Shown here one piece after another: positions 5,946 through 37,621 of a DNA stretch of 39,990 nucleotides. Below the pieces are notes generated by a model. That model saw nothing but the letters and a program-made list of their open reading frames with translations. It did no database searches and had not been told where the DNA came from. The position numbers and the translations under genes are program-made. Location of the stretch: the NCBI GenBank assembly GCA_964408825.1, contig CAYPAU010000005.1, positions 1 to 39,990 on the forward strand. Direction: 5' to 3'. This DNA comes from an uncultured Gammaproteobacteria bacterium (GTDB taxonomy: Bacteria > Patescibacteriota > Microgenomatia > Levybacterales > UBA12049). Numbering within the stretch: position 1 is the stretch's first letter; every line of letters begins with the position of its first letter.

Positions 5946-7805
5946 ATGATTGCGCCTTTATCCTGGTTAAGGGAATATGTTGATATTTCGCTTCCTCCTG
6001 AAAAACTCGGAGAAAGACTTACTGAAATTGGACTTTCGACAGAGAAAATAGAGAAAACAAGAGACGATGTTATTTTTGAATTTGAAATAACACCCAATAG
6101 GCCAGACCTCCTTTCGATAATAGGAATTGCAAGAGAGACAGCTGCGGTAGAAGGAAAGGAAATAAAGTTTCCAAAACTTTATGATTTAAAAAATGTCAAG
6201 CCTCAAAAAACATTGCCTTTAAAAATTATTACCGATGTAAAAATTAATCCTAGGTTTACCGGAATAATAATTGATGACATTACGGTAAAAGAATCTCCCG
6301 ATTGGCTAAAAGAAAAGCTTACGAAGGTTGGGCAGCGTCCGATAAATAATATTGTTGATATAACAAATTATGTAATGCTGGAGCTCGGGAATCCAATTCA
6401 CGCTTTTGATTACGATAAAATAAAGGGACAGGCTATGAAAGTTCACCAAACAAGGGGAGGAGAAAAATTTACTAGTGTTGATGGAATTTCATACCATCTC
6501 CCAAAAGGAGCTGTGGTTATTTCTGATTCCGATAGAATAATTGACCTTTGCGGAATAAAAGGAGGAGAAAATACAGGAACCTATAAAAATACAAAAACAA
6601 TTTTCTTAAGGGTTCCTGTTGAAGTCCCCTCGCTTATTAGAAGAGCCTCCCAGTCCCTCGGTCTTCGTTCTGAAGCCTCTTCCATATTTGAAAGAGGGGT
6701 AAATGCCGGTGGTACCCTAGATACCTTATCTCGTGCAATTGAGCTTATTCTTGAAATTGCAGGTGGAGAAATCGTAAGTCCGCTTTATGATATCAAAAAA
6801 GAAAATTTTCTTCCTTGGACCATTGACTTAAGTCTTAAGAGACTTTCCAAAATTCTGGGCATTGAAATTCCTAGAGCAAAAGTTATAAATATCCTACAAA
6901 GGCTTAACTTAAAAACCACTAATCTAAAGGGGGATAAAATTAGAGTAAAAATACCAACTTATAGAAATGATCTAAAAATTGAGGAGGATATTATTGAAGA
7001 AGTCGCAAGGCTTTACGGATACAACAACTTTCCTAAAACTTTACCAGAACGGCCAATCCCTACGAAGACAATTCCTTATTTTAAAGATTATAAACTTGAA
7101 GAAAGAGTAAAAGAACTCTTTAAGTCAACCGGATTTTCGGAAATATACTCATATAGTCTTATCTCTGAAAAGGATCTTGAAGAGAATAATATTAATCCGG
7201 ACAAGATACTTCGGGTAGATAATTCAATAAGTCGCGAATTTGAATATCTCAGACCAACGTTAAAAATTAATCTTAGAAAAGCTGTTTTGGAAAACAAGGC
7301 AAATTTCAAGGATATAAATTTATTTGAACTAGGAAAAGTTTATCTTGGGGAATCTATTGATAAATCAAGGGAAACATATTTCCTATCTGGAATATCAAAT
7401 AATAAAAATTTCTATGAAGTGAAGGGGATTCTTGAGAAACTCTTTGAAGAATTAAATATAAAAAGTCAACCGGAGGAAAATATAGAAATTTTAGAGGAGG
7501 GTATTTTCTTTGAACTTAATTATAATACACTTCTTGAGAGAATTGACTTTTCAAAAAAGTTTAAACCACTACCAAAGTTTCCTCCGATAACCGAAGACTT
7601 AACCATTACCTTAAAGGACAAAGATAGGGTTGGAAAAATAATTGAAAAAATAAAAAACCAAAGCAATTTAGTTCGAATTATTGAAGTTATAGATAGATAT
7701 GAAAACAATGTAACTTTTCATATTACTTATCAAAGTGATAAGAGAAACTTGACCCGTGAAGATGTTGAAGAGATCCGAGCAAAAATTTTAAAATCCCTAA
7801 AGTGA
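5946..7805 (+). CDS. pheT: Phenylalanyl-tRNA synthetase beta subunit, short form lacking the N-terminal OB (B2) tRNA-binding insert
   Basis: MIAPLSWLREYV... runs quickly into TPNRPDLLSIIGIARE. It is 619 aa versus about 800 aa typical. Confidence 0.92.
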   Translation: MIAPLSWLREYVDISLPPEKLGERLTEIGLSTEKIEKTRDDVIFEFEITPNRPDLLSIIGIARETAAVEGKEIKFPKLYDLKNVKPQKTLPLKIITDVKINPRFTGIIIDDITVKESPDWLKEKLTKVGQRPINNIVDITNYVMLELGNPIHAFDYDKIKGQAMKVHQTRGGEKFTSVDGISYHLPKGAVVISDSDRIIDLCGIKGGENTGTYKNTKTIFLRVPVEVPSLIRRASQSLGLRSEASSIFERGVNAGGTLDTLSRAIELILEIAGGEIVSPLYDIKKENFLPWTIDLSLKRLSKILGIEIPRAKVINILQRLNLKTTNLKGDKIRVKIPTYRNDLKIEEDIIEEVARLYGYNNFPKTLPERPIPTKTIPYFKDYKLEERVKELFKSTGFSEIYSYSLISEKDLEENNINPDKILRVDNSISREFEYLRPTLKINLRKAVLENKANFKDINLFELGKVYLGESIDKSRETYFLSGISNNKNFYEVKGILEKLFEELNIKSQPEENIEILEEGIFFELNYNTLLERIDFSKKFKPLPKFPPITEDLTITLKDKDRVGKIIEKIKNQSNLVRIIEVIDRYENNVTFHITYQSDKRNLTREDVEEIRAKILKSLK

Positions 7806-10948: not shown

Positions 10949-10957
10949 ATTATAACA
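10949..10957 (-). promoter_or_regulatory. Extended -10 box TGtTATAAT (minus strand), 7 nt before PBP ATG 10941
   Basis: The minus strand reads ttTGtTATAATttaaggtATG. Confidence 0.55.
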
Positions 10958-10963
10958 AAAACC

Positions 10964-10996
10964 AGTTGCCAGTGGCTAGTTGCTAGTGGCTAGTGT
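10964..10996. repeat. Heptamer tandem repeat (AGTKGCY)n, CTAGT-word family
   Basis: agttgcc agtggct agttgct agtggct agtg. It lies in the PBP/tyrS divergent spacer. A related array is at 31751-31785. Confidence 0.85.
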
Positions 10997-15275: not shown

Positions 15276-17363
15276 ATGAATCTTGACAAATCGGTCAAAA
15301 GCATGGGCGGTATTTACAAAAAATATGCCGGCCGTCTTGAAAAACTCGGAATAATAAAACTTGAAGATTTTCTCTATCACATCCCTTTTCGCTACGAAGA
15401 TTACTCTCTAATTTCCAAGATAAACAAAGTTCAGGCAGGAGAGACAGTGACCATACAGGGTAAAATTTCGGAGATAAAAAATGAATACACAAGAAGATGG
15501 AAAAATCTTCAAAAAGCAAGGGTTAGGGATAAATCCGGAACTATAGATATAATTTGGTTTAACCAACCCTTTATTCCAAAAATCTTAAAAAAGAACGACC
15601 GCGTCTCTCTCTCCGGAAGGGTAAAACAATATCTAGGAAAAAATATCCTGGAATCCCCGGAATATGAAACTTTAAACGAGCAAACTATTCATACGGGAAG
15701 ACTCATCCCCATCTACAGCGAAACCCGAGGCATCTCGTCCAAATGGATAAGAAAACAAATACATAATTTAATTAGGGAACATAGGGATGAGTTCAAGGAA
15801 TATCTTCCCGATGAAATTCTTAGTATAAATAACTTTTTAAATTTTAAGAATGCTATTGAGCAAATACATTTTCCTTCTTCAAAAAAAAATGCAGAACTTG
15901 CCCGGGAAAGACTTTCCTTCGATGAACTTTTTCTTCTTCAGCTTAAGAGTATGATTAAGAAAGCGCAGTGGAAGAAGAAAAAAGCTTCCAATGTTTTTGA
16001 GGTTTCAAAATTCAGAGAAGAAATCGGAGAGTTTTTAGAAAAACTTCCTTTTAAACTAACCAATTCTCAAAAAAAAGCAGTCGAGGATATTTTAAAAGAC
16101 CTGAAATCAAAAAAACCAATGAACAGACTTCTGGAAGGAGACGTCGGATCGGGTAAAACTGTGGTTTCAGCAATTACAATGTATTTATCCTTTTTAAACG
16201 GGTTCCAGTCAGTTTTGATGGCACCCACAGAAATTCTCGCACAACAACACTACAAGACAATTTCTGATTTATTAAACCCTTTTGGAGTAAAAGTCGGTTT
16301 AGTAACAGGATCAAAGAAATGGAAAATGCTCGCCCCGCGAAGCTTGGACGAAGCGGGGGAAAATGCTCGCCCCGCGAAGCTTGGACGAAGCGGGGGAAAA
16401 TGGAAAATCGATATCCTTGTCGGTACTCACGCTGTAATTTACGGAAAATTAAATTTTGAAAACTTAGGACTTGTTGTGATAGATGAACAGCAAAGGTTTG
16501 GTGTAAAACAGAGATCTCAGCTACGCAACAGAGGGAAAAATCCTCATCTTCTAACGATGACCGCAACTCCGATACCAAGAACCGTTGCACTTGTCATTTA
16601 TGGAGAACTGGATGTCTCATTTCTTTCTGAAATGCCCCATGGACGAAAAACAGTAAAAACATGGCTTGTGCCCGAAGAAAAAAGAGAAAATGCATATGTT
16701 TGGATCGAAAAAGAAATAAAAAACACGAATTCACAAGCATTTATAATTTGTCCTTTTATAGAGGAATCTGAAACCATGGTTTCAGTCAAAGCCGCAACCA
16801 AAGAATTTGAAAGGCTTAAAAAAAACGTTTTTCCAAGATTAAAACTCAAACTTCTGCATGGAAAACAAAAAAGTGAGGGAAAAGAGGAAATCTTAAATGA
16901 TTTTAAAAAGGGGACGGTGGATATACTTGTCGCAACACCGGTCGTTGAAGTTGGTATTGACATTCCCAATGCAACAATAATGCTTGTTGAAGCCTCAGAA
17001 AGATTTGGCCTTTCGCAACTTCATCAACTCAGAGGAAGAGTGGGCAGGAGTGATAAACAATCTTATTGTCTTTTATTTACGGATTCAAAAAACGAAAAAA
17101 CGCTCAAGAGATTAAAGAGTATGGAAAGCATTAACGTGGGCGCGCAATTGGCAGAGCTTGATTTAAAACTCAGAGGACCGGGCGAAATCTACGGAACATC
17201 TCAGCACGGAATTCAGGCTCTTAAAATCGCGTCATTTTCCGATTTTTCTGGAATTGAAAAATCCAGAAAAGAAGCAGAGGCCATTTTACCCAAATTTAAA
17301 AAATATCCAATGCTTCTTAACAAAATAAAGTCCGAAAACCTCGCCGAAATCTCTCCCGATTGA
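15276..17363 (+). CDS. recG: ATP-dependent DNA helicase RecG
   Basis: OB wedge domain, helicase motifs GDVGSGKT, DEQQRFG, TATPIPRT and QLRGRVGR. 695 aa. It contains an in-frame repeat insert. Confidence 0.92.
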   Translation: MNLDKSVKSMGGIYKKYAGRLEKLGIIKLEDFLYHIPFRYEDYSLISKINKVQAGETVTIQGKISEIKNEYTRRWKNLQKARVRDKSGTIDIIWFNQPFIPKILKKNDRVSLSGRVKQYLGKNILESPEYETLNEQTIHTGRLIPIYSETRGISSKWIRKQIHNLIREHRDEFKEYLPDEILSINNFLNFKNAIEQIHFPSSKKNAELARERLSFDELFLLQLKSMIKKAQWKKKKASNVFEVSKFREEIGEFLEKLPFKLTNSQKKAVEDILKDLKSKKPMNRLLEGDVGSGKTVVSAITMYLSFLNGFQSVLMAPTEILAQQHYKTISDLLNPFGVKVGLVTGSKKWKMLAPRSLDEAGENARPAKLGRSGGKWKIDILVGTHAVIYGKLNFENLGLVVIDEQQRFGVKQRSQLRNRGKNPHLLTMTATPIPRTVALVIYGELDVSFLSEMPHGRKTVKTWLVPEEKRENAYVWIEKEIKNTNSQAFIICPFIEESETMVSVKAATKEFERLKKNVFPRLKLKLLHGKQKSEGKEEILNDFKKGTVDILVATPVVEVGIDIPNATIMLVEASERFGLSQLHQLRGRVGRSDKQSYCLLFTDSKNEKTLKRLKSMESINVGAQLAELDLKLRGPGEIYGTSQHGIQALKIASFSDFSGIEKSRKEAEAILPKFKKYPMLLNKIKSENLAEISPD
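16323..16396 (+). repeat. Tandem 2 x 37-nt GC-rich hairpin repeat inside recG
   Basis: The unit AAAATGCTCGCCCCGCGAAGCTTGGACGAAGCGGGGG is identical at 16323-16359 and 16360-16396. It is flanked by AAATGGAAAAT at 16317 and 16398, 81 nt apart. Confidence 0.95.
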
Positions 17364-23472: not shown

Positions 23473-24293
23473 TGAGACTTAGGCGATAATATTCCGTAAG
23501 AAAAGTATTCTATGGGAAGAAACGAGAATCCCTTAAATACGCTTAATCTTCTCTGAACCTCAGAGGATGCACCGGTTGAGACAATGACAGACCCCTGAGA
23601 GGGAATATTTGCTCCTGAAACTGCAATATTTGCATTTTTGTAAATCGGCACAATCCTAGCAAGAGCACCATCACTTACACCTATGACATTTTTAAAATTA
23701 AATGACTTTCCCGAAAGAGTGTAGGGAGGACTTACCTTATCAGGTTTACCAAATCCGTTTCCTCCGGCTCTTGAGTCGCAGGGATCAACAGCATATTTTC
23801 GGGAATTGATCGTCGAGGGATCTGAGGGATTTCCTCTGACCAGTATTATCTCAAGCGCTGCCTCATCGCAACCGACATTGGTGTCTCCCCAATAAATTGT
23901 AAGATCCCCACTCCACCTTGAAGCAGTTGTATTCAAAGATCCATCAGGATTATGAGGCATTAGCCATAAATCAATCCCTTCATCCTGCGGAATAATATTC
24001 CCTCCGTTTAAAGGAAGTTCTGATGTCAGAGCAGAAATCAAATTTGTTTTATAATTTGCGCTATTGCTGAAAGATTCGGGAGATCCGATACTTGTATTGA
24101 TCTGAATGGTTTTTTGAATTCCCGCCTCTGCCGCTGCCAAGGCCTGAGCAGAATTTGCCTCCTCCGTTGAGGTCTTAACATTTGTGATACTTTTTGAAAC
24201 GACTGAGAGTCCGATTGTGAGAGAAACGACCATAACCAGTACAACTATGAGAAGCGTTTGTCCTTCTTGTCCAAAATGAATTTTATTTGGCAT
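23469..24293 (-). CDS. PilX-like / degenerate pseudopilin (N-terminal hydrophobic helix, no canonical G/F site)
   Basis: N-terminus GQEGQTLLIVVLVMVVSLTIGL resembles the PilX N domain. Position in the pilus cluster supports the call. Confidence 0.5.
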   Translation of the reverse strand: MPNKIHFGQEGQTLLIVVLVMVVSLTIGLSVVSKSITNVKTSTEEANSAQALAAAEAGIQKTIQINTSIGSPESFSNSANYKTNLISALTSELPLNGGNIIPQDEGIDLWLMPHNPDGSLNTTASRWSGDLTIYWGDTNVGCDEAALEIILVRGNPSDPSTINSRKYAVDPCDSRAGGNGFGKPDKVSPPYTLSGKSFNFKNVIGVSDGALARIVPIYKNANIAVSGANIPSQGSVIVSTGASSEVQRRLSVFKGFSFLPIEYFSYGILSPKSQ

Positions 24294-24299
24294 ATTTTT

Positions 24300-24329
24300 A
24301 GAGTACCAATCAAGCTTGCCTTATGTCAA
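24300..24329 (-). promoter_or_regulatory. Internal promoter TTGACA-N18-TACTCT, with the -10 box 6 nt before ATG 24293
   Basis: The minus strand reads ccTTGACAtaaggcaagcttgattggTACTCTaaaaatATG. Confidence 0.5.
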
Positions 24330-24355
24330 GGTCATCAAGACCGACAAACAAACTC

Positions 24356-25747
24356 TTAATAATTTCTGACTGTAATCGAGGTCTGAAAAGAGACAGAGGC
24401 TTGATTTTCAGAAAGAGTGCTGCTGCCTTTTGAGATGTTTGCTAAAGTAAAACTGATTGTTATAGTAGGCGGTGAAACTATGCTTTCCTGCCTGCAGGTA
24501 ATCGAGCAGGAAGTGACGCGAACGGAATTTGTATCAACGAGTTTTGTAGTCAAACCGCCGCTGATTGAGGCTATTTGACCATTTTCATCATCTGCCCCGG
24601 GCGTCCCGGACGCAGGAAGACACGAGAAGATCGTTTGCCCGCCGTCAAATGCTGTTACCTTAATGTACTTATAAGCCGGGGCAGGCGTCGGGGACGGACC
24701 CGGAGTAGGGGAAGGGGTGGGAGTAAGAGTTGGAGTGGGAGTAGGAGTAGAGGTCGGAGTAGGAGTAGAGGTTGGCGGGGGCGGAGTATAATATATTGTT
24801 GCGGTAATTTGATCTATGTAAACACTTAAGCCTGTAGAGGCTTGATCGGCATATAGGGAAACACCAAAATTACTGGCTCTAATCTCAGTAGCGCTCCAAG
24901 ACGTCTCTCCCCAGAGATAAGTACCGCTACCGAAAACAAAAAGCTGATCCGAGGTATTTGAAATTGTCAAAGTCTGGGTATTGCCGGTTATTACTCCGGC
25001 TTTTATAGGAGATATAACAAGACGCACCGATCCGGTATTTACTTTCCCCTCGACCTGAAATGAGATGCCCTCAATGGTTGACCCGTCAGGAACGCTTCCC
25101 GGATCAAGATTAAAGCGGAAATCTGTCCCCTTTAGATAGTGAGTTTCTGCTCCCGGATTTAAGGTCTCTTTACCTGTAGAAACATACTTATTATCGCTAG
25201 TTTTAATTTCCGCAGGCTTATCCCAGTTAATAGTACCCGTTGCTCTGGTTGCAGTTGTTGCAGAATTAGGAAATTTCTGAGTCGAGACTGCGGCAGCGAC
25301 ATCCTGCTTAGGACCAGTCTCTCTTATTCCAAATTTTGGAATTAAACTCGCCAAAAAAGATACAGTCTTCTTCCCCAAATTCCGGAGTCGCAAAGTAAAA
25401 CCCTGAGGCTCTTTTTCTGCAATTTCCTTAGGATTTGAGAATGTGATAGGCGCGGTACAATTTTTTGCATAGCTTTCTACAAGGAGGGGATTCGAATCCA
25501 TGCTTACGCCGTCAAAAGATCTTGAGTACTTTATCATTCTTCCCATCTGCTCAATCGCATAATTCCCGTTTCTTCTTACTGTATCAAGAGAGCTTGCCTT
25601 ATTTGATCCCCGAAGAGAAGAGAAGAGAATTCCAACCACCATACTTCCGATCACCATAACAACAATTATCACAACCAGAAGCTCGATTAGGGTAAACCCA
25701 TTCTTTAATTTAAAATTTGAAATTTTAAATTTTAAATTCATCGTCAT
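24356..25747 (-). CDS. Large modular type IV pilin-like protein (463 aa) with an inserted beta-rich module and a Pro/Thr linker
   Basis: Class III signal KLKNG/FTLIELLVV, the linker PPPPTSTPTPTSTPTPTPTLTPTPSPTPGPSPTPAP, and a Cys-containing C-terminal segment. Confidence 0.75.
   Translation of the reverse strand: MTMNLKFKISNFKLKNGFTLIELLVVIIVVMVIGSMVVGILFSSLRGSNKASSLDTVRRNGNYAIEQMGRMIKYSRSFDGVSMDSNPLLVESYAKNCTAPITFSNPKEIAEKEPQGFTLRLRNLGKKTVSFLASLIPKFGIRETGPKQDVAAAVSTQKFPNSATTATRATGTINWDKPAEIKTSDNKYVSTGKETLNPGAETHYLKGTDFRFNLDPGSVPDGSTIEGISFQVEGKVNTGSVRLVISPIKAGVITGNTQTLTISNTSDQLFVFGSGTYLWGETSWSATEIRASNFGVSLYADQASTGLSVYIDQITATIYYTPPPPTSTPTPTSTPTPTPTLTPTPSPTPGPSPTPAPAYKYIKVTAFDGGQTIFSCLPASGTPGADDENGQIASISGGLTTKLVDTNSVRVTSCSITCRQESIVSPPTITISFTLANISKGSSTLSENQASVSFQTSITVRNY
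25704..25738. repeat. Heptamer array (TNAAATT x5) encoding the signal-peptide start of the large pilin
   Basis: tttaatt taaaatt tgaaatt ttaaatt ttaaatt. The coding strand gives MTMNLKFKISNFKLKNG. Confidence 0.8.
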
Positions 25748-26271
25748 GGATAGACCGGCGTAATGGGTTTAAAAAAACACGATGTGAGAGAAACCTTATG
25801 CCAAAATTGACTGACACTCGGACACTTTCCGTCTGACCATTTTACAGTAGACGTCACCCTACCGTTATTTGGGACTGCTGGAGTTGGTGTTACGCCGCAT
25901 ACGTTTTGCTCTACTCTTAGTTCTCTGACGAAAATTCCTACGTTTTGGGGGCAACTTTGTCCGGCAGGAAGCGGAGTAGGAACAACGCCTCCCTGGGGAA
26001 GACAGTAGTAATTGCTGTATCCTGAAAAAGTTCCCCAATTTGACTGAGAAGTGTTACGCAGAACATCCAGTCCCTCTTGCGCAAATTGAGTCGCCTGATT
26101 TTGGTTTATTCCGAACTGCTCATTTGAAAGAGATGAGATAACTACCGCAACAATTGCAGACATTATAAGTGTTGCCGCTCCCAGGGCAACCATTACCTCC
26201 AAAAGTGTCTGTCCACTCTGAACTTTTAACAATTTAACAATGTAGCAATTTAACAATTTCTTTTTACTCAT
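25744..26271 (-). CDS. Minor pilin-like protein (degenerate prepilin signal G/QTLLEV)
   Basis: KVQSG/QTLLEVMVALGAATL and a 4-nt overlap with neighbours on both sides. Confidence 0.65.
   Translation of the reverse strand: MSKKKLLNCYIVKLLKVQSGQTLLEVMVALGAATLIMSAIVAVVISSLSNEQFGINQNQATQFAQEGLDVLRNTSQSNWGTFSGYSNYYCLPQGGVVPTPLPAGQSCPQNVGIFVRELRVEQNVCGVTPTPAVPNNGRVTSTVKWSDGKCPSVSQFWHKVSLTSCFFKPITPVYP
26224..26259. repeat. Octamer array (ATTTAACA-like x4) in the 5' end of the minor pilin ORF
   Basis: ttttaaca atttaaca atgtagca atttaaca. It encodes LLNCYIVKLLK. Confidence 0.75.
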
Positions 26272-26852
26272 TTTATGCTCCCGTCCTTTCCTACTGTGAT
26301 TATGGCCGATTGATTGGTCTGTGTATTTTTAATGCCGATCATCCCATATGATCCACCATCAAATATAATTCCTCCTGTTAAAACAGGGAAGGAGAAAGTA
26401 GAGGGACTATTTTCAATACGATAGCCTCCCGGCAATTTTCCTGTCTTTATGGGAGGGGAGACATAGTTTCCGCCGCATCTTACGTCAAGTTCATAATCGG
26501 CATCTTCGGTATTTATGCAAACCCCCGATGAAACCCCCGCAATCTTACATATTTTTACTTGATATCTATCCAATTGATTTGTATTGCACGGAGGGGTCGA
26601 GGGTTTTACCTGAGAGTAGGCTCTTGATTTGCCAAGATTAAGCATTGACTTTATATCGCCTGCGGCTGCATTTAAAGTCTGGGTTCTTGAGAAGGAAACA
26701 AAAGCAGCGACTCCGACTGTTGAGAGGATTGCCAAGATAGAAAAAACTATCATTAGTTCAATCATTGTAAAACCTACTCTTCTTGATTTTTTTAGAAAGA
26801 GGCGTTTTAGATTAAGGGTTCTTAAGTACATATTGCCGGTTGGGAGAAACAC
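26268..26852 (-). CDS. Type IV pilin-like protein (GspH/FimT-like size)
   Basis: Prepilin signal SRRVG/FTMIELMIVFSIL. An alternative ATG lies at 26831. Confidence 0.75.
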   Translation of the reverse strand: MFLPTGNMYLRTLNLKRLFLKKSRRVGFTMIELMIVFSILAILSTVGVAAFVSFSRTQTLNAAAGDIKSMLNLGKSRAYSQVKPSTPPCNTNQLDRYQVKICKIAGVSSGVCINTEDADYELDVRCGGNYVSPPIKTGKLPGGYRIENSPSTFSFPVLTGGIIFDGGSYGMIGIKNTQTNQSAIITVGKDGSIK

Positions 26853-27354
26853 AAAAAGCAGTTCCAGATATATTTGGGTCTGAGTCGTTCTGATTTTCTA
26901 TACAAGCGGTAAGAGTATAGGATCCGCTTGAGTAGCTATAAATATAGTCACCATAGGTCATAGCATCACCGGAGGAAACATCGTAAACGGATTTATTTGG
27001 ATCACAAGGAGGCTTGGACATATAGGTAGTTGCATTATAGACAGCGGGCGAGGTGGGAGGACAATGAGTAGAGTAAAAAATTGTCTTAAATGAGCTACTG
27101 TCCGGATAGCTTCCTTGATCTGAACGGTAGAATTCAAGGGCCGCTTGAATCTGCCGTAAGTCGGATTTTCTTTGACTGTCTCTTGCTCTTTGTCTTACTC
27201 CGATAAAGTTGGCAAAAAGAACGCTTGCAAGAACTCCGATAATTGCAACTGCAATAAGAAGCTCAATCAGGGTAAAACCAGATCTACAATTGACAATTGA
27301 CAATTGACAATTGACAATTTTTTTGATTTTTGAACGCCACAAGCCTGAATTCAT
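26812..27354 (-). CDS. Type IV pilin / T2SS GspG-like pseudopilin
   Basis: NCRSG/FTLIELLIAVAIIGVLA, then RDSQRKSDLRQIQAALEFY. Confidence 0.8.
   Translation of the reverse strand: MNSGLWRSKIKKIVNCQLSIVNCRSGFTLIELLIAVAIIGVLASVLFANFIGVRQRARDSQRKSDLRQIQAALEFYRSDQGSYPDSSSFKTIFYSTHCPPTSPAVYNATTYMSKPPCDPNKSVYDVSSGDAMTYGDYIYSYSSGSYTLTACIENQNDSDPNISGTAFCVSPNRQYVLKNP
27286..27319. repeat. Heptamer array (ACAATTG x4.9) inside the pilin signal-peptide coding region
   Basis: The coding strand has ATTGTCA x4, giving IVNCQLSIVNC. Confidence 0.9.
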
Positions 27355-27357
27355 AAG

Positions 27358-27385
27358 TCTTAATTCATAAATCTTAAATCTTATG
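27358..27385. repeat. Heptamer array tcttaat tcataaa tcttaaa tcttatg in the pilin-pilin spacer
   Basis: It shares the 13-mer TCTTAATTCATAA with the array at 37601-37631. Confidence 0.8.
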
Positions 27386-28003
27386 TCATGGTGTTATATT
27401 CGCGCTTGTCACACCGTAATTGCACTGAAAACCTGTCCCGCACCCGTCCGCCGTAACCCTCCCGTTTGCATTTGCACATGGGATTGAAGTACATGCTTGG
27501 GTATCAAGACTTCCTCGCTCAAGAGACGCATAGATTGCATAAGATTGTCCATCACTGTATGCCCAATAGGCATAACTTCTTCCAGTTTTTGGATCTTTCG
27601 GGAGTTTTGTTTTGTATGAATCCCAATAACTACCCCAGTTTTGACAACCAGATGGGGGATTGATTCTGTATAGCTCTGTAGCAGAGCATCCAGGAAGTAC
27701 GGCTCCTGTGTTATGTGGAGGATATTTGCCATTATCGTTGTAATATGCCTCAAGAGTCCTTTGAAGTTGGGAAAGATCCGATTTTCTTTGCGAGTCGTTT
27801 GCTTTCTTAAACTGTTCAAGCGGATTAATTATGACTATTACTCCGCTTGTTATAACGCTTAAGACTCCTATTACTATCAGAAGTTCAATAAGAGTAAACC
27901 CAGATGAGTTAGTTGTTCCCCAAAGAAGAGACTTAAAAAAGTTCCCAAAACTAAAAAGGGGCCGAAAGGAATTTTTCCCCCGGGCAGCTTCTTTTTTCCC
28001 CAT
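27386..28003 (-). CDS. Type IV pilin with a long (35-aa) leader
   Basis: TNSSG/FTLIELLIVIGVLSV, then NDSQRKSDLSQLQRTLEAYY. The only in-frame start is ATG 28003, which lies 127 nt inside pilD. Confidence 0.75.
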   Translation of the reverse strand: MGKKEAARGKNSFRPLFSFGNFFKSLLWGTTNSSGFTLIELLIVIGVLSVITSGVIVIINPLEQFKKANDSQRKSDLSQLQRTLEAYYNDNGKYPPHNTGAVLPGCSATELYRINPPSGCQNWGSYWDSYKTKLPKDPKTGRSYAYWAYSDGQSYAIYASLERGSLDTQACTSIPCANANGRVTADGCGTGFQCNYGVTSANITP

Positions 28004-28737
28004 ATAACTAGTATGATGCCTACTGATGCACCTGTCAAGAACGCCAGATAAAAAGCGCCTACAATAAGTGGGAAGCCAAGAAAAAGTCCCATTAAAAACG
28101 CGAGTTTCACATCCCCAAAGCCCATACCCTTACCTTTTGTAATCAAAAAAAGTATAAGAAGAAAAATAAATGCCCCAAAAGCAGAAAGGAGATAATTGCT
28201 GAATTGTTGAATGGTTAAATTGTTGAAATCAAATGGTAAATGGAAAATGGTAAATGGAAAATGGTAAATTACTGAGACTACGACTGCAGGATAAACGATC
28301 TTATCAGGAATAATTCCATATTTTAAATCAGTAAAAAAAATAACTGTCAAACTCGAGGCAATGAAAAGATAATAGAAAAGATCTATTGTTACATTGCTGA
28401 ATTGTTGAATTGTTAAATTAAATGGAAAATGGAAAATGGCAAATGGCAAATTATTTAGTTTAAGAACATAAAGATAAATGATAATAAATATTAACCCTGT
28501 CAAAATCTCAACCAAGGGGTAGTAAAACGAAATAAGGGAGTGGCAATGCCGGCATTTTCCTTTCAGAATCAAAAAGGACAAGACCGGGATCATATCAAAC
28601 CATCTAAGATTTTTTTTGCAGTTATCACAATAAGATCTTCCTCTAAAAACCTGCTCACCATGAGGAATCCTGTCAACAAGAACGTTTAGAAAACTCCCTA
28701 CACAAACTCCTAGAATAAAGAGAAACAATAGCGCCAT
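27877..28737 (-). CDS. pilD: Prepilin peptidase / N-methyltransferase (A24 family)
   Basis: CxxC...CxxC zinc motif and the catalytic Asp contexts DLKYGIIPD and GMGFGDVKL. ATG 28737 is preferred over TTG 28752 because TATAAT lies 6 nt upstream. Confidence 0.9.
   Translation of the reverse strand: MALLFLFILGVCVGSFLNVLVDRIPHGEQVFRGRSYCDNCKKNLRWFDMIPVLSFLILKGKCRHCHSLISFYYPLVEILTGLIFIIIYLYVLKLNNLPFAIFHFPFNLTIQQFSNVTIDLFYYLFIASSLTVIFFTDLKYGIIPDKIVYPAVVVSVIYHFPFTIFHLPFDFNNLTIQQFSNYLLSAFGAFIFLLILFLITKGKGMGFGDVKLAFLMGLFLGFPLIVGAFYLAFLTGASVGIILVIWGKKKLPGGKIPFGPFLVLGTFLSLFFGEQLTHLGLLLLNF
28195..28269. repeat. Composite repeat copy A inside pilD: ATTGCTGAATTGTTGAAT-GGTTAAATT module plus (AAATGGW)x5.5
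   Basis: Seen directly in the sequence. It encodes ...YHFPFTIFHLPFDFNNLTIQQFSN. Confidence 0.9.
28393..28451. repeat. Composite repeat copy B inside pilD: ATTGCTGAATTGTTGAAT-TGTTAAATT module plus (AAATGGM)x4.5
   Basis: Seen directly in the sequence. It encodes ...LPFAIFHFPFNLTIQQFSN. Confidence 0.9.
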
Positions 28738-28743
28738 GAAACA

Positions 28744-28749
28744 ATTATA
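28744..28749 (-). promoter_or_regulatory. -10 box TATAAT (minus strand), 6 nt before pilD ATG 28737
   Basis: The minus strand reads cTTGTATAATtgtttcATG. Confidence 0.45.
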
Positions 28750-28821
28750 CAAGATCTAAGATTTCCGAATTTTATAAAGAAGTTAAATATAAAGGTTTAC
28801 TTATTAGGGTTAAGGTTAAGA

Positions 28822-29403
28822 TTAAGGGGCAAAAGGAGAGAATGTTCCAGCACCGATTTGTGTAGCAGTTGGATCACCAGATAGGCAGACTATACCTGCT
28901 TTGGCAGCTACGGAGGAATATAGCCAGTATGAATTATCGGAAGCAGTTGCACATTTCTTGTCTTCCGACGCAGACTCCATTCTTGTATAGATAACATAAT
29001 CATCGTCGGTAGCTGCTTCACGAGCATAACAATAATTACTCACCACTGCACCAACTGCTGTTGCATCTATGGCACAAGCAGTAGTATTAAATGACCCTGT
29101 AGAATAGGCAACGGTTGAAGGAAGCGATTTAAGCTCACCTGCAGTCACCAGTGTCTGCAGCCACGTACTGTCTGCAGTGGGTAGAGTGGCATTCTGAGCA
29201 GTGTAATACGCTCCCAAGGCATTCTTAAGCTGGGCAGCTGTAGTTTTTCTGCCTGAGTCTCGGCCTCTCGCCAATTGTTCAAGCGGATTTACTGCCGCGA
29301 TAACCAGGGCTGCGATGACTCCAAGAACTGCGATTACTACGAGAAGTTCAATAAGTGTGAACCCTGGAGATTTCTTAAGAAGTTTGGGCAGTTGAAATTT
29401 CAT
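28822..29403 (-). CDS. Probable major type IV pilin
   Basis: Short leader MKFQLPKLLKKSPG/FTLIELLVVIAVLGVIAAL, an Ala/Thr/Gly-rich body with 4 Cys, its own consensus -35, and first pilin position after pilC. Confidence 0.8.
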   Translation of the reverse strand: MKFQLPKLLKKSPGFTLIELLVVIAVLGVIAALVIAAVNPLEQLARGRDSGRKTTAAQLKNALGAYYTAQNATLPTADSTWLQTLVTAGELKSLPSTVAYSTGSFNTTACAIDATAVGAVVSNYCYAREAATDDDYVIYTRMESASEDKKCATASDNSYWLYSSVAAKAGIVCLSGDPTATQIGAGTFSPFAP

Positions 29404-29442
29404 CTATATATTAAGTAGAGCAGAAAAAAAATAACTTGTCAA
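29404..29442 (-). promoter_or_regulatory. Major pilin promoter: TTGACA-N11-TTCTGCTCTA box, TACTTAAT, ATG within about 12 nt
   Basis: The minus strand reads cTTGACAagttattttttTTCTGCTCTActtaatatatagATG. There is no SD. Confidence 0.55.
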
Positions 29443-29460
29443 GGGGGCAAATTGAGGCTA

Positions 29461-29482
29461 ATTATTAGTTATTAGTTATTTT
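29461..29482. repeat. Heptamer array (ATTAGTT x2.5) spanning the pilC stop codon
   Basis: att attagtt attagtt atttt. Confidence 0.7.
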
Positions 29483-30681
29483 ACCGAAGAAATTAAACTA
29501 TAAATCGGAGTAATAACAGACACCAGAAGAAATGCCACTCCAGCTCCCAGTGTCACCATAATGGCAGGCTCAAGCGCCGTAGTCAGGGTTTTTACGGTTT
29601 GATCTGTCTCAAATTCAAAATACTCAGACGCCTTAAGAAGAGTCTCATCAAGTTTTCCTGTTTCCTCTCCAATTTTAACAAGCTGTGAAAGAACCGGAGG
29701 AAATAAAGAATAAGACGAAAGCGCCTCTCCGACAGAAACTCCATTTTCAACTTTTCTTGCAACTCCCATAGCCGCATTCTTGTAATGAATATTTCCCAAA
29801 GTATCCGATGCCTGAACCAGGGAGTCAACTACGAGAGTTCCCGATCCTACAAGAAGACTTAAGGTTCTTGAAAATTCGGTGAGGATTATTTTTTTTGAAA
29901 GATTGCCAAAAATTGGTATTTTCAAAGTTAGGTTATCGATAACGAGTCTTCCTGCCTGACTTTTATGCCATCTTCCAAATAGAAAGAGCCCCAAGACCAA
30001 TATACCGATTATAAAAGGCCAGAAAGTTATTAAAAAACCCGACATTCCGATAATCATTTTCGTAGTAAAAGGAAGCTCAACGTCTAGACTCTTGTAAAGC
30101 CCTGATAATTGAGGGATAACAACAGTCATCATTATAACAACAACAAGAATCATAAGAAGAACGACAATAGCAGGATAGGTGAGAGCACCTTTAATGGTTC
30201 TATTTAATTTATCTTGTTTCTCAAGATTTTCTGCCAAGCGCGTCAAGGCTTTATCCAAAAGTCCGGATGATTCGGCGGATTTTACGATTGATACGTAAAT
30301 AGGAGAAAAAACATCGGGGGATTTCGATATCGAAGAAGAAAATGTCTTTCCTTCCTCTATATCCGAAATGATTCCTCCGACAATCTCAATTGTTGACTGA
30401 CTAGTAAATTGCTCCTTGAGTATTTCAAGGGATTTCAAAAGAGTAAGACCAGAGGTAAGCATTGAGGAGAGTTGTCTTGTGAAAAGCATTAGGTCCGAGT
30501 GCTTCACCCGACTAAAAAACGGCAAAAATTTTAATATATTATTTTTATCTTCCGAGAAAACAGTAATTGGCACTAATCCTTTGCTCCTAAGATAGGTTAT
30601 GGATTCGGGGATATCTTTGGCTTCAATAAGCCCTCTTATTATTTTATTGTCCTTTGAAATCGCTTTATATCGAAGTTTCAT
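29476..30681 (-). CDS. pilC: Type IV pilus platform protein PilC (GspF family)
   Basis: Duplicated GspF domains and three TM segments. ATG 30681 lies 1 nt after the pilT stop. The track ORF extends to 30708. Confidence 0.9.
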   Translation of the reverse strand: MKLRYKAISKDNKIIRGLIEAKDIPESITYLRSKGLVPITVFSEDKNNILKFLPFFSRVKHSDLMLFTRQLSSMLTSGLTLLKSLEILKEQFTSQSTIEIVGGIISDIEEGKTFSSSISKSPDVFSPIYVSIVKSAESSGLLDKALTRLAENLEKQDKLNRTIKGALTYPAIVVLLMILVVVIMMTVVIPQLSGLYKSLDVELPFTTKMIIGMSGFLITFWPFIIGILVLGLFLFGRWHKSQAGRLVIDNLTLKIPIFGNLSKKIILTEFSRTLSLLVGSGTLVVDSLVQASDTLGNIHYKNAAMGVARKVENGVSVGEALSSYSLFPPVLSQLVKIGEETGKLDETLLKASEYFEFETDQTVKTLTTALEPAIMVTLGAGVAFLLVSVITPIYSLISSVK

Positions 30682-30682
30682 A

Positions 30683-31747
30683 TCAACCGACAAGACGCAA
30701 GAGCTCATCCTGTCTCAACGCATAGCTTCTTGCGGTTTCAAGACTTATGGTTCCGCCTAAGACCAGAGAAGCAAGCGATGACTCAAGCGGAATCATTCCC
30801 ACATCTTGAGAGTTTTGAATAATAGAATCTATAAGATGTGTTTTCCCGTCTCTTATGTTACTTGCGATAGCACTCGTACCAATCAGAAGTTCAACTGCCG
30901 GGATCCTGCCACCTGATATTTGAGGCATAAGTCTTTGAGAAACTATTCCCTTAAGAGTTGCTGAAAGCTGTGCTCTAATTTGGGACTGCTGATCCGAAGA
31001 AAATACATCAATTATTCGGTCTATACTCTGAGAGGCGGAGTTGGTATGAAGAGTTGAAAAAACCAAATGTCCTGTCTCTGCAATTGTAATCGTTGATGCT
31101 ATAGTTTCAGGATCCCTCATTTCCCCAACCAAGACCACATCCGGATCTTCGCGAAGAGCGGAACGTAAGGCCGCCTGCCACGAATTTGTATCCTGCCCCA
31201 TCTCACGCTGAGAGATCAGGCTCTTTCCATGAGGATAGATATATTCGATCGGGTCTTCGATGGTAAGAATATGAACTGCTCTTCCTAAGTTAATTTCATT
31301 AATAATTGCAGCAAGTGTGGTCGATTTCCCATGACCGGTTGGTCCCGCAATAAGAATAAGTCCCTGTTTAAGAGTTGCGAAATTATGAAGATATTTTGGA
31401 AGATTTAGCTCTTCAATCGTCCTTATCTTTGGCTCAAGGAATCTAAATTCTCCGCAAATAAAATTCTTTTGAAAATAAATGTTTGCCCGGAATCGTCCCG
31501 TCTGACCATTGGCACCCTCAAAACTAAAGGAGAAATCAAGCTCTTTATTTAAAATAAATTTTTCTTTTTGCGACTGATTAAGAAGCGAGAAAATCATACT
31601 GTGTGTATCTTCTCCTGAGAGAGGCAGAGCGTCTGAGACGAATGAAAGCTCACCATCAATGCGAAGAGAAGGAGGAACTCCGGGAATAAGATGTAAATCC
31701 GATGCCTTACTGTTTACTGTAAGATGTAAAAGGTGTTGAATATCCAT
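30683..31747 (-). CDS. pilT: Twitching motility (retraction) ATPase PilT
   Basis: Walker A GPTGHGKST, Asp box, Walker B VVLVGEMRD, His box FSTLHTNSA. 354 aa. Confidence 0.92.
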   Translation of the reverse strand: MDIQHLLHLTVNSKASDLHLIPGVPPSLRIDGELSFVSDALPLSGEDTHSMIFSLLNQSQKEKFILNKELDFSFSFEGANGQTGRFRANIYFQKNFICGEFRFLEPKIRTIEELNLPKYLHNFATLKQGLILIAGPTGHGKSTTLAAIINEINLGRAVHILTIEDPIEYIYPHGKSLISQREMGQDTNSWQAALRSALREDPDVVLVGEMRDPETIASTITIAETGHLVFSTLHTNSASQSIDRIIDVFSSDQQSQIRAQLSATLKGIVSQRLMPQISGGRIPAVELLIGTSAIASNIRDGKTHLIDSIIQNSQDVGMIPLESSLASLVLGGTISLETARSYALRQDELLRLVG

Positions 31748-31750
31748 AAA

Positions 31751-31785
31751 CTAGTTGCTAGCGACTAGTTACTAGTGGCTAGTTA
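31751..31785. repeat. Heptamer array ctagttg ctagcga ctagtta ctagtgg ctagtta in the pilB-pilT spacer
   Basis: Same CTAGT word family as 10964-10996. It runs into the pilB stop codon. Confidence 0.85.
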
Positions 31786-33516
31786 TTCTTGTGCTACTCT
31801 TATTACCTCCTCGGGTGTCGTTATGCCAGATAGAACCTTAAAGTAGCCATCCTGTTTCATTGTTATCATTCCCTCATTTAACGCTTCTTTCTGAACGGCG
31901 GCACTGCCCGGGCGCTCAAGAATAAGATTTGCCATTTTCTGAGAAATCGGTAAAACTTCAAAAATACCAATTCGACCCAAATATCCAGAGCCTGAACACT
32001 TATCGCAACCTTTTCCTCGATATAATTTAAGTTCTGAACCATTTGGAGACGGATATAATTTTCCCAAAACATTTTTTATCTCTTCTGTAATTTGTCTAAG
32101 TGGAGCATACGGTTCTCTGCATGTCGCACAGACTCTTCTGACAATTCTTTGCCCGACAACCGCATTCATTGTCGATGAAAGAAGAAAGGGCTCAGCACCC
32201 AAATCTATAAGACGAGGTATTGCTCCAGCCGCATCTGAAGTATGAAGTGCCGAAAAAACCAAATGTCCCGTGAGTGATGCCTGAATAGCAAGCTCGGTGG
32301 TTTCTCCGTCTCTTATTTCTCCAACAAGGATTATATTGGGGTCTTGTCTTAAGAATGACCTAAGACCTGTTGCAAAAGTAAGTCCCACACCGGGATTTAT
32401 CTGTATCTGATTAACTCCCGGCATTTGATACTCAACAGGATCTTCAAGGGTCATAATATTAACTCTTGTTGTATTAAGTTTCTCCAAAACCGCATAAAGA
32501 GTAGTAGTTTTACCAGATCCGGTCGGACCACAAACCAATATAACTCCATGCGGGCGAAGAATCGATGTTTCTAAATTTTTAAGAGATGTTCCCGTAAGAC
32601 CAAGTTCGGGAAGAGTAGGTATTCCTCCTGATTTACGAAGAAGCCTCATCACAATCTTCTCTCCAAAGGTTGTCGGCATTACGGAAATACGAAGATCCAC
32701 TTCGTTATTGTCTACTTTGAAATTAAAACGGCCGTCCTGTGGCATTCTGTGTTCATCGATTTTCATGTCGGAAAGGATTTTGATGCGGGATATGACTGCT
32801 TCCTGAACGGTCTTTGGAAGACTCAGCCTGTCATACAAAATACCATCTATTCTGTAACGCACTCTGATTCGATCTTCCTGCGGTTCAATGTGGACATCAG
32901 AGGCTCTGCTTGATACCGCATATTCAAGAATAGTTGAAACGATTTTGGCAATAGGAGCCTCTTTTATAATCTCCGCAATTTCCTTACTGTCGATGGTTTT
33001 TGCCTTAATCAGCTCCTCTGTCTGCTTTATAGCCTCTCCGACTTCTCCTACGATTTCCTGTTTGTACTGTTGTCTTATTGCTGTTTTTATATCCTCAAAA
33101 GGTGCTGCAAAAGTCTTGAGGGTAAGTCCTGTTTTTTGTCTGACAAATTCCAAGGCTTCAAGGTCTACGGGATTGGCCATTGCGACGGACAAGGTTTTTG
33201 TCCGCTCGTCATACATAAAGGGGATAAGCGTAAATCTTTCGGCAACAGCTCTTGAAATCATTGAGAGGGCAAGAGGAGAAAAGGATGTTGAGGAAAGTGA
33301 GATAAAAGGAATTCCTAAGAGTCTTGCCTTGGCTTCTGCAATTTTATCGGAGGAAACAATTCCTGACAACAAAAGAGTCTCTTCGTATGATTTGTCTAAG
33401 CTTGCGGCTTTAACCTTAATATCCTGAACCTGTGAAGGGGTCAAGATATGCTCGGAAAGCAGAATATCAAGTATCGTAGACTTTATGGAATCTGTATTAA
33501 AATCTGTGGCGGGCAT
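31783..33516 (-). CDS. pilB: Type IV pilus assembly ATPase PilB (GspE family)
   Basis: N-terminal GSPII domain, Walker A GPTGSGKTT, tetracysteine CATC...CDKC, 577 aa. Confidence 0.93.
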   Translation of the reverse strand: MPATDFNTDSIKSTILDILLSEHILTPSQVQDIKVKAASLDKSYEETLLLSGIVSSDKIAEAKARLLGIPFISLSSTSFSPLALSMISRAVAERFTLIPFMYDERTKTLSVAMANPVDLEALEFVRQKTGLTLKTFAAPFEDIKTAIRQQYKQEIVGEVGEAIKQTEELIKAKTIDSKEIAEIIKEAPIAKIVSTILEYAVSSRASDVHIEPQEDRIRVRYRIDGILYDRLSLPKTVQEAVISRIKILSDMKIDEHRMPQDGRFNFKVDNNEVDLRISVMPTTFGEKIVMRLLRKSGGIPTLPELGLTGTSLKNLETSILRPHGVILVCGPTGSGKTTTLYAVLEKLNTTRVNIMTLEDPVEYQMPGVNQIQINPGVGLTFATGLRSFLRQDPNIILVGEIRDGETTELAIQASLTGHLVFSALHTSDAAGAIPRLIDLGAEPFLLSSTMNAVVGQRIVRRVCATCREPYAPLRQITEEIKNVLGKLYPSPNGSELKLYRGKGCDKCSGSGYLGRIGIFEVLPISQKMANLILERPGSAAVQKEALNEGMITMKQDGYFKVLSGITTPEEVIRVAQE

Positions 33517-36430: not shown

Positions 36431-37621
36431 ATGTCTATTTTTAATTCACTCGGTTCAAACTATGATTTTAAATTTGTTTTAAAGACACTGCTTTCTGTTG
36501 GGGGAGAATCGGAAAAGCGAAAACTAAAAGAAACTCTGAGAAGAAAATATAAGGGGGAAGTATTATTGTTCTATAAGGGTAGAGAAGCTCTAACTTTTGC
36601 TCTAAAGTCTTTGTCTCTTCCGGAAGAATCGAAGACTGCCATTAACGGATTTACGTGTTATGCAGTTTATAAAGCCGTTGAGGAAGCCGGTCTAAAACCA
36701 GTCTTACTTGACATCGACGACAGCCTGAATTTTTCTCCGGAAAAACTTAAAAGTATCATAGAATCTTCGGATATCAAGGTTGTCATCGTACAAAATACGC
36801 TGGGGTACATATGTGAAATAAAAGAAATTGCAAAAATTTGTAAAAAAAATAATATTATTCTTATTGAAGATTTGGCTCATTGTGTTGGGACAAATTACGA
36901 AAACGGAGAAGAAGCGGGGACAGTTGGCGATTTCGTAGTGTTTTCTTTCAGCCAAGACAAAATGGTTGACGGAATATCGGGTGGAGCATTAATTGCAAAA
37001 ATTCAAAATTCAAAATTCAAAATTCAAAATTATTCCTACCCACAGTTTTCAGTACAGATCAAGAATCGGCTTTATCCGCTACTTACATTTATAATTCGGT
37101 CAGCTTACGATTTTGGTTTGGGTAAATTACTCCACTACTTTTTGAAAAAATCGAACATGCTTTCAACACCCATGGACGATTCGTTATATGGAACGCTAAA
37201 TCTTTCAGACTTCTATCAATCACTAGTAATGGAATCTTTTAATAATCTTAAAGGAGACTTGGAACATCGGAAAAAGATCGCAAAAATTTATAAAAATAAT
37301 CTGCCCTCTAAAATATTATTTGAAAAAATTACTTCTCAAATAGAAAATTCCTCAAATCTTCGTTTTCCAATTTTTGTAGAAAACCGAGACAAGCTGTTAA
37401 AATTCTTAAAAAGTAAAGGTTTTTATATTTCGGACATCTGGTATGATGCGCCAATTTCTCCAAAAAGATTTATGCAAAAAATTGAATATGCAGGAGATTG
37501 TCCCAATGCTGAGGAGATTTCTGAAAGAATTTTAAACTTACCGACACACAAAAACATTTCGGAAAAACAAGCGTTAAAATTGGCAAAATATATAAATAAT
37601 TTCTTAATTCATAATTCTTAA
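36431..37621 (+). CDS. DegT/DnrJ/EryC1/StrS-family PLP aminotransferase (amino-sugar biosynthesis)
   Basis: Family layout with the PLP lysine context FSFSQDK. It contains an in-frame heptamer-repeat insert. Confidence 0.85.
   Translation: MSIFNSLGSNYDFKFVLKTLLSVGGESEKRKLKETLRRKYKGEVLLFYKGREALTFALKSLSLPEESKTAINGFTCYAVYKAVEEAGLKPVLLDIDDSLNFSPEKLKSIIESSDIKVVIVQNTLGYICEIKEIAKICKKNNIILIEDLAHCVGTNYENGEEAGTVGDFVVFSFSQDKMVDGISGGALIAKIQNSKFKIQNYSYPQFSVQIKNRLYPLLTFIIRSAYDFGLGKLLHYFLKKSNMLSTPMDDSLYGTLNLSDFYQSLVMESFNNLKGDLEHRKKIAKIYKNNLPSKILFEKITSQIENSSNLRFPIFVENRDKLLKFLKSKGFYISDIWYDAPISPKRFMQKIEYAGDCPNAEEISERILNLPTHKNISEKQALKLAKYINNFLIHNS
36998..37032. repeat. Heptamer array (AAAATTC x5) in frame inside the aminotransferase gene
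   Basis: It encodes KIQNSKFKIQN immediately after GGALIA. Confidence 0.9.

Follow-up and report, generated by a model that had tools for sequence, protein, structure and literature searches.

Why should the gene for a conserved membrane enzyme carry two near-identical short-period repeats, one on either side of its first catalytic residue? The question is raised by pilD, the prepilin peptidase gene located at 27877..28737 on the minus strand of a 39,990-nt stretch of contig CAYPAU010000005.1 (assembly GCA_964408825.1), referred to as the window. The window contains the type IV pilus cluster of a Levybacteria/Roizmanbacteria-like member of the Microgenomates, an assignment made because the closest PilD homologues bear those names, and its minus strand encodes pilB, pilT, pilC, a pilin, pilD and a series of pilin-like genes. 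The original prediction held that one composite module had been inserted twice into pilD, that it was a nucleic acid-level element and not a selected protein domain, and that gain or loss of a repeat unit could switch the peptidase off. The answer favored here, with somewhat better than even confidence, is that the modules are repeats born by slippage that permissive segments can tolerate, subject to a filter at the level of the encoded peptide.

The pilD gene encodes 286 amino acids from the ATG at 28737, the mechanically called open reading frame (ORF) extending to a TTG at 28752. This frame (27877..28752, minus strand) is unbroken and its translation contains both of the near-duplicate peptides that had been quoted for it. 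On the coding strand each module consists of CCATTTN heptamers followed by RCAATNNN octamers, both in frame. At site 1 the heptamer array (CCATTTN, 4.6 units, 28420..28451) encodes LPFAIFHFPF, residues 97-106, and the octamer array, with RCAAT every 8 nt (28393..28419), encodes NLTIQQFSN, residues 107-115, at the start of the helix that bears the catalytic residue D137. At site 2 the heptamer array (CCATTTW, 5.6 units, 28231..28269) has a perfect 14-nt period repeated 2.8 times and encodes IYHFPFTIFHLPF, residues 157-169, while the octamer array with a 9-nt linker (28195..28230) encodes DFN-NLTIQQFSN, residues 170-181; the linker corresponds to the 9 extra bases GTTGAAATC which separate the octamer and heptamer parts in the copy at 28195. 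Tandem Repeats Finder recovered the heptamers on the opposite strand as AAATGGN (5.6 units at 28231-28269, 4.6 at 28420-28451), as well as 8-nt-period arrays at 28194-28227 and 28385-28419. At period 7 the pilD arrays are imperfect, with fewer than three perfect units.

The presence of two modules, at 28195-28269 and 28393-28451, was thus confirmed. The sequence ATTGCTGAATTGTTGAAT occurs exactly twice in the window, at 28195 and 28393, compared with 0.06 matches at up to 3 mismatches in dinucleotide shuffles, and 28195-28221 and 28393-28419 are identical at 26 of 27 nt. As had been stated, the modules lie on either side of the first catalytic Asp, since the codon of D137 (FTDLKYG) is found between them at 28327..28329 (minus strand). 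The count of two copies needs a correction: a third, diverged RCAAT octamer copy is located at 26224..26259 on the plus strand, antisense to its host gene, in the leader region of the pilin-like ORF 25744..26271. It is 80% complementary to the octamer part of pilD, that is, an inverted match, so that the 40-kb window holds two copies of the composite module and one diverged partial copy. No inverted repeats were detected inside the module, including terminal inverted repeats, nor any hairpin; the minimum free energy (MFE) of folding ranged from 0 to -3.9 kcal/mol on both strands, less stable than shuffled sequences, with the sense RNA being unstructured (MFE 0 kcal/mol). A scan of 24000-32000 against Rfam at E<=1 gave no match.

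The enzyme itself appears to be a regular member of its family. PilD matches PF06750 (A24_N_bact, 1.5e-32, residues 13-94) and PF01478 (Peptidase_A24, 3e-17, residues 129-246), and it retains all residues that are invariant in an alignment of 37 homologues, among them D137, D209 within the GxGD motif (GMGFGD, codon 28111..28113, minus strand) and C37, C40, C62 and C65 of the N-terminal four-Cys domain. The repeat-coded segments fall outside the A24 family core: site 1 is located between the two Pfam domains and site 2 adds about 14 residues to a profile of 104 positions. In an AlphaFold2 model built on the 37-sequence alignment (mean predicted local distance difference test score, pLDDT, of 85.9), site 1 is coil at 95-109, with pLDDT <50 at residues 101-104, and residues 160-173 of site 2 are largely coil with a short helical turn at 161-164 and a mean pLDDT of 58 for 161-170, the low-confidence coil of this copy being assigned to 165-173. 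In both copies the next transmembrane helix starts with the octamer-coded NLTIQQFSN, which makes up its first turns; D137 is at the end of helix 110-140 and D209 is reached through helix 174-199, and the repeat segments are placed at the helix ends opposite these residues. Both Asp residues and the Cys4 domain of PilD have been located at the cytoplasmic face (PMC3584216). With the repeat loops set opposite the Asp residues by the model, both loops are predicted to lie on the outer face of the membrane, flanking a hairpin whose cytoplasmic turn bears D137. Neither a PDB sequence profile search nor Foldseek with the model yielded a solved PilD structure that was usable or close enough to check the model, and for this reason the topology rests on the model together with the published one. 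The composition of the encoded peptides, 2% K+R and 56% hydrophobic residues in the PilD arrays and 16% K+R in the cytoplasmic leader arrays of prepilins (see below), is consistent with such nearly uncharged outer loops and Lys-rich cytoplasmic leaders.

The same two loops vary widely among homologues. Between conserved anchors the length ranges from 27 to 58 residues at site 1 and from 45 to 80 at site 2; the shortest homologues have 27 residues at site 1 and the window PilD has 51, which supports, along with the model, the earlier suggestion that the segments occupy loops and indicates that they are dispensable. In the 48 PilDs parsed between these anchors, all loops with a clear period have period 7 (14/14 at site 1, 12/12 at site 2). 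Other species hold GC-rich perfect hairpins in frame in these loops, at site 2 in six loci (L015, L019, L026, L030, L045 and L050) and at site 1 in two (L017 and L031); these inserts, such as CACCTCGAAGG…CCTTCGAGGTGG, resemble Rickettsia palindromic elements. Since such inserts are accommodated in frame, the loops can be regarded as permissive. It could be argued instead that the aromatic loop peptides (PFxIFHxPF, NLTIQQFSN) are a selected motif, functional in this PilD subfamily, given that similar peptides recur among homologues and that the next helix begins, in the model, with turns made of the octamer-coded residues. This is highly improbable: a 7-nt DNA periodicity is not a product of protein selection, differences between orthologous modules are mostly non-synonymous with third positions conserved, the loops are swapped for unrelated sequence or nearly missing in other homologues, and the confidence of the model in these segments is low. 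The view of the modules as nucleic acid-level repeats and not as an A24 peptidase motif is supported, both by their position outside the family core and by a divergence that lacks a codon-position pattern, as described below.

The distribution of such arrays was surveyed in 1.38 Mb of Levybacteria/Microgenomates sequence, comprising the syntenic loci of the closest PilDs and 80 species-level genome loci, all centered on pilus clusters, with a threshold of at least 3.5 units per array. Period 7 dominates, with 146 arrays compared with 27, 7, 20, 11 and 1 for periods 4, 5, 6, 8 and 9. The arrays are composed of 57 distinct heptamer units, AAATGGT and AAAATTG being the commonest, and their size is narrow (3.5-5.7 units); lengths at period 7 are bimodally distributed, the second peak being at 31-34 nt both in coding sequence and between genes, and period-8 arrays peak at 30-31 nt. 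Super-periods of 14 nt also occur. Per 10 kb, pilD holds 7.1 arrays, pilin-like genes 2.7, intergenic DNA 2.4 and all other genes 0.25. Although pilD makes up 4.7% of the sequence, it holds 38 of 130 arrays, at two fixed offsets which are sites 1 and 2. An alignment with homologues had been proposed to find out whether the segments were private insertions; they proved to be instances of lineage-wide arrays in the same two PilD loops. As in other heptanucleotide simple sequence repeats (SSRs), 7-nt units are joined head to tail in several arrays and exceed both chance and other periods. The predominantly intergenic location of short tandemly repeated repetitive (STRR)-like arrays was not found: in these pilus-centered loci 31 of the 146 arrays are intergenic and 9 straddle the edge of an ORF, the other 106 being located wholly in ORFs (54 mid-gene, 51 in the first 120 nt and 1 close to the 3' end).

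Besides pilD, the preferred position is the leader of its substrates. Among 60 arrays at ORF 5' ends, 51 lie in prepilin leaders directly ahead of G|FTLIE (loci L001-L087), and for most prepilins of these clusters an array of about 33 nt, heptamer or octamer, encodes the larger part of the leader; the commonest leader length is 15-16 residues, e.g., MTMNLKFKISNFKLKNG|FTLIELL. An in-frame ATG is retained in 42 of 43 prepilins with arrays, and in some species the leader array itself provides it (GAATTAT units giving MNYELRIKN). Variants of a single unit, TTTWCNA, are each uniform within a species, as exemplified by TTTACCA, TTTTCAA and TTTACGA at site 1; units that are alike within a species and different between species imply recurrent turnover. 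The sense strand of the arrays is poor in G (4-7%). Avoidance of stop codons in all three frames may account for this in coding arrays; the G-poverty was also considered as an RNA signal, an idea that was dropped because the intergenic ACTAGTK/GCTAGTG arrays of the window are, by eye, not G-poor.

How old are the two sites? The window pilD was aligned with three orthologues of 65-69% protein identity, and the site-1 module is present in all four genes (4/4). Over the rest of pilD the divergence at codon positions 1, 2 and 3 is 0.22-0.33, 0.12-0.17 and 0.48-0.60, respectively; in the 75-nt site-1 module it is flat and low (e.g., 0.12, 0.12, 0.12), with third positions at 0.12-0.24. Judged from these alignments, the pattern is a nucleotide-level signature, and because the module is common to orthologues without a codon-position pattern it behaves as a nucleotide-level feature. 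Such a flat profile may stem from the repeat itself: an array-wide change hits all three codon positions and therefore none of them is silent. A recent exchange or a function at the nucleotide level would explain it equally well. Site 2 is the least conserved part of pilD (41-64% DNA identity). In the relatives it has the same two-part design in a different sequence, with ATTTAYY heptamers followed by CAAT-phased heptamers that encode VNHQSSIIN, and on this account the composite layout is probably old at both sites. The site-1 module would then have been inherited from the ancestor of the clade, and the novelty of the window would be the octamer part of site 2, apparently a recent intragenic copy, 26/27 nt, of the site-1 octamers. 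In a comparison of strains that are 97-99.6% identical (L001 against L004/L005), site 2 and its flanks are swapped as a block while site 1 is identical; pilD is in this case a mosaic between co-occurring strains, strongly diverged at 8200-8290 of L001 (the N-terminal helix region) and at 8620-8760 (site 2 and flanks).

The claim of a double insertion is not supported as worded in the light of this history, given that short-period arrays occupy both loops in many Levybacteria, that the site-1 module appears ancestral and that only the site-2 octamers seem to have been copied recently. The related proposal that a small non-autonomous mobile element, comparable to a miniature inverted-repeat transposable element (MITE) or a Rickettsia palindromic element, transposed twice into pilD is very improbable as well. 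It would account for two near-identical copies in one gene and a third, partial copy in reverse, and both Y1-transposase genes adjoining pilD in relatives and GC-rich hairpin elements in these loops of other species lend it some plausibility. The module, however, has neither terminal inverted repeats nor a hairpin, the occupancy of site 1 is shared by orthologues and hence ancestral, and the heptamer-then-CAAT-phased architecture recurs at site 2 of the relatives with a different sequence. In addition, (AAATGGN)n is a generic sequence in metagenomes: a scan for (AAATGGN)x4 (L088-L207) matched contigs of 25-66% GC from many environments, with 1 of 120 matches in a pilD, and yielded neither sister strains of the window nor a Levybacteria-specific element. 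The lengths of these metagenomic arrays also peak at 32-34 nt, and for this reason bacterial heptamer repeats in general may tend towards arrays of about 4.7 units. As regards mobile and accessory genes, several relatives (L007 at 3425-4147; L214-L219; L220, L223 and L224) have Y1 (IS200-like) transposase genes, HepT/nucleotidyltransferase pairs and PhD/ParE toxin-antitoxin pairs inserted in the interval that separates pilD from the major pilin gene, and the window has none there.

Length variation was assessed in six sets of near-identical contigs from different samples, which provided 45 arrays and 198 array-by-contig observations. A single length variant was found, and no pilD array differs. 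Compared with L214, which is 99.7% identical, L216 is shorter by 14 nt (two units) in an AACTCTC/AATTCTC array that lies in a prepilin-like gene, within its leader (L214 12586-12619; L216 around 6419-6438); the L214 ORF encodes 188 amino acids (MIIKEYMKKKSSRPWRKNSQFSTLNSQLSSGAG|FTLVEL…) and the L216 allele is frameshifted and broken. In view of this change, slippage does occur in the lineage and can silence a pilin. No out-of-frame pilD was detected in the 80 species loci or the six strain sets, although consensus assemblies can hide a minority of OFF cells, and no 7- or 21-nt length variants were found within the 90% protein clusters of PilD. Two apparent exceptions were discarded: the truncated PilDs of the 90% clusters are due to contig ends or to a frameshift in a T-run after site 2 (P0158), and the gene-length differences downstream of pilD in the P0010 strain set reflect different start-codon choices on identical DNA.

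These data bear on whether the arrays are a contingency locus, selected as slipped-strand switches: adding or dropping one or two units would shift the frame of pilD or of individual prepilins, and pili or pilin variants would alternate between on and off, which could aid the escape from pilus-specific phages or alter attachment to the host. In favor of this explanation, arrays cluster in pilus genes and at the 5' ends of coding regions, where such switches are classically found, and SSRs are enriched near protein N-termini in some pathogenic bacteria, which was read as aiding phase variation (Lin and Kussell, PMC3315296). The homogenized units imply repeated slippage, and the 14-nt change described above is a natural frameshift of a prepilin ORF. 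On the other hand, pilD is never out of frame in the 80 species loci and the strain sets, the in-frame ATG is nearly always kept in array-bearing prepilins, and only one variant was seen in all the observations. The range of unit numbers is narrow, in contrast to neuO (3-53 units, OFF in 65.6% of genomes; PMC13001214), the pilD arrays of the window are imperfect, and intergenic arrays share the same length mode. Contingency selection is consequently rather unlikely. As to the proposed phase switch of pilD, the mechanism has been seen to operate once, in the L214/L216 prepilin, but with neither frameshifted genes nor length variants of pilD itself the switch is weakly supported.

Alternatively, the arrays, especially the RCAAT octamers, might be functional nucleic acid elements serving as binding sites or as unstructured RNA tracts, for which a candidate reader would be an S1-, Csp- or CsrA-like protein that contacts about 7-8 nt per binding unit and co-regulates the translation or stability of pilus mRNAs. 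Arrays with phased RCAAT number 32 at period 7 and 31 at period 8, compared with 1, 3 and 0 at periods 6, 9 and 10, and the phasing is kept in three different reading frames across species. In favor of such elements, RCAAT stays constant while the three intervening bases vary, across frames and genes. Conservation without a codon-position pattern and the lack of structure in the sense RNA (MFE 0 kcal/mol) point the same way, and many arrays adjoin start codons, like the TAACTGA repeats of Beggiatoaceae (PMC4679880). A total of 57 heptamer units, nevertheless, excludes one sequence-specific reader, the arrays occur in both orientations relative to genes, those of pilD and of a DegT-family aminotransferase gene are mid-gene, the Rfam scan of 24000-32000 was empty and the reader protein remains hypothetical. 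A regulatory element of this kind is accordingly considered unlikely.

The reading favored here sees the modules as tandem DNA arrays of short period that lie in frame in both outer PilD loops flanking the D137 hairpin and belong to a lineage-wide class of arrays of about 30-35 nt in Levybacteria-type Microgenomates. We infer an origin by slippage, and neutrality, for these arrays. They would be born by replication slippage or unequal exchange, which would also keep their units alike, and would survive only where the 10-12 encoded residues do no harm, namely the two PilD loops, the cleaved prepilin leaders, one loop of the DegT aminotransferase and short intergenic spacers. Selection would act as a filter on the product, allowing no stop in any frame, holding the charge of the outer loops near zero and keeping the cytoplasmic leaders rich in Lys. 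At site 2, intragenic conversion or duplication would have replaced the octamers with a copy of those of site 1. The arrays would contribute nothing to catalysis, and their one functional effect would be a raised but low risk of frameshift.

Several observations weigh against this explanation. The DNA identity of the site-1 module (79-88%) is higher than that of the rest of pilD (60-72%), and the phasing of RCAAT across three frames is not explained by a neutral passenger, which should decay; to account for this phasing and the conservation of site 1, one of three things is needed: recent exchange, a function at the nucleotide level, or rapid homogenization together with a filter on the protein. 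Arrays are nearly absent from 3' ends (1/146), even though C-terminal tails should be permissive too. The modal length of about 33 nt in intergenic DNA is not predicted by slippage alone, and the concentration in pilus genes is also expected from selection for contingency loci. The intergenic 33-nt mode, the scarcity at 3' ends and the RCAAT phasing, which the favored reading does not explain, keep the contingency and regulatory explanations alive. A bolder reading is considered quite unlikely: Levybacteria-type members of the Candidate Phyla Radiation (CPR) would possess a dedicated, pilus-wide heptanucleotide system, in which slippage-prone tracts of about 33 nt in nearly every prepilin leader and in both outer loops of the single PilD are actively maintained, either as coordinated frameshift switches or as handles for a repeat-reading regulator. 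If so, populations of these episymbionts could reshuffle the pili that they display.

The rest of the window offers further examples of these repeats. Tandem Repeats Finder located period-7 arrays with differing units spread over its length; those of at least three units number 7, compared with 0.2 in dinucleotide shuffles. A perfect array of ACAATTG (4.9 units, 27286..27319, minus strand) lies in the leader of the prepilin ORF 26812..27354 (…IVNCQLSIVNCRSG|FTLIELL), and another heptamer array (25707..25738, minus strand) in the leader of the pilin-like ORF 24356..25747 (MTMNLKFKISNFKLKNG|FTLIELL). Outside the pilus cluster, a perfect AAAATTC array (4.9 units, 36998..37031, plus strand) is in frame in the DegT-family aminotransferase gene. 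In this DegT/DnrJ/EryC1 aminotransferase an array is present at the matching position (around residues 189-205) in three species (the window, L012 and L030); it is made of AAAATTC heptamers in the window and of RCAAT octamers in the two orthologues, where it encodes NNLTTQQFNN or NNKTIEQWNN, peptides of the same type as those of PilD. Within ORF 15276..17363 (695 aa), a perfect 37-nt tandem repeat of 2.2 units at 16321-16402 is in frame and holds a GC-rich hairpin (CCCCGC…GCGGGG) with fragments of AAATGGA heptamers on its flanks. The intergenic ACTAGTK/GCTAGTG arrays at 10956-10994 and 31745-31783 are 85% alike; the tyrS start follows one of them after 14 nt and the pilT start follows the other after 3 nt, and no obvious Shine-Dalgarno sequence was seen between the array and the start codon of pilT.

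The 3' end of pilD presents a different peculiarity. A prepilin gene begins within pilD (window 27877-28003), as it does in 29 of 64 related loci; its leader of 34-40 residues (MGKKEA…SSG|FTLIEL) is encoded in the +2 frame by the final 105-125 nt of pilD. The conserved C-terminus of PilD (…LNF or …LSF, followed by the stop) overlaps FTLIELL of the pilin, and this start is often missed by gene callers.

The layout of these repeats is unusually clean, with fixed positions in one conserved membrane enzyme and in the leaders of its substrates across dozens of species; the units turn over while the length stays near 33 nt, and the filter on the encoded peptide is visible. Slippage as a cause, the homogenization of units within arrays and the factors that set array length thereby become testable by comparison. 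For genome annotation, the 15-16-residue pilin leaders and the variable PilD loops of these CPR genomes are repeat-coded and not conserved motifs. In the literature that was searched, neither prepilin leaders nor PilD loops of CPR bacteria were described as repeat-coded, and a switching function, if true, would be the first contingency system described in this group.

Among known systems, the opa genes of Neisseria contain CTCTT repeats in the region coding for the signal peptide, with a unit that is not a multiple of 3, in longer tracts that are hypervariable. The arrays described here share with opa such repeats in the cleaved N-terminal leader of a surface protein; hypervariability of the opa type was not seen in them. 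The neuO gene of Escherichia coli K1 (AAGACTC units in the 5' coding region) is likewise a coding heptanucleotide array in which the frame is kept only at certain unit numbers (PMC13001214). It differs in having 3-53 units, the OFF state in 65.6% of genomes and variants of one unit more or less that are measurable within a culture (PMC13001214), compared with 3.5-5.7 units, a pilD that is always ON and one variant in 198 observations.

Heptanucleotide repeats are over-represented in bacteria, with GGGAATC-type units in Xanthomonas and Nostoc and others in cyanobacteria, and a bias in polymerase slippage has been proposed as the cause (PMC4692102, citing a 2007 survey). These arrays resemble ours in their tandem 7-nt units, few copies per array, many loci and unexplained origin, and are mainly intergenic with one or few units per genome, whereas 57 units, a mode of about 33 nt, a location mostly in frame in coding sequence and a concentration in pilus genes characterize the loci sampled here. 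The TAACTGA repeats of Beggiatoaceae, cyanobacteria and Bacteroidetes are also heptamer direct repeats, in 2-6 copies and mostly at gene starts; inside ORFs they are found at the periphery of the protein and encode a 7-residue cyclic peptide (PMC4679880). Unlike the present arrays they have a single conserved unit with stop codons in the forward orientation, and neither a link to one pathway nor conserved intragenic hot spots were reported for them (PMC4679880). Rickettsia palindromic elements, finally, are in-frame repeat DNA at tolerant places of unrelated genes in a reduced genome (PMC10969869), as the arrays are here. They measure about 150 bp, are palindromic and form families with a conserved peptide (PMC10969869), while the modules of the window are non-palindromic and unstructured; a close likeness to them is provided by the GC-rich hairpins in the PilD loops of other species.

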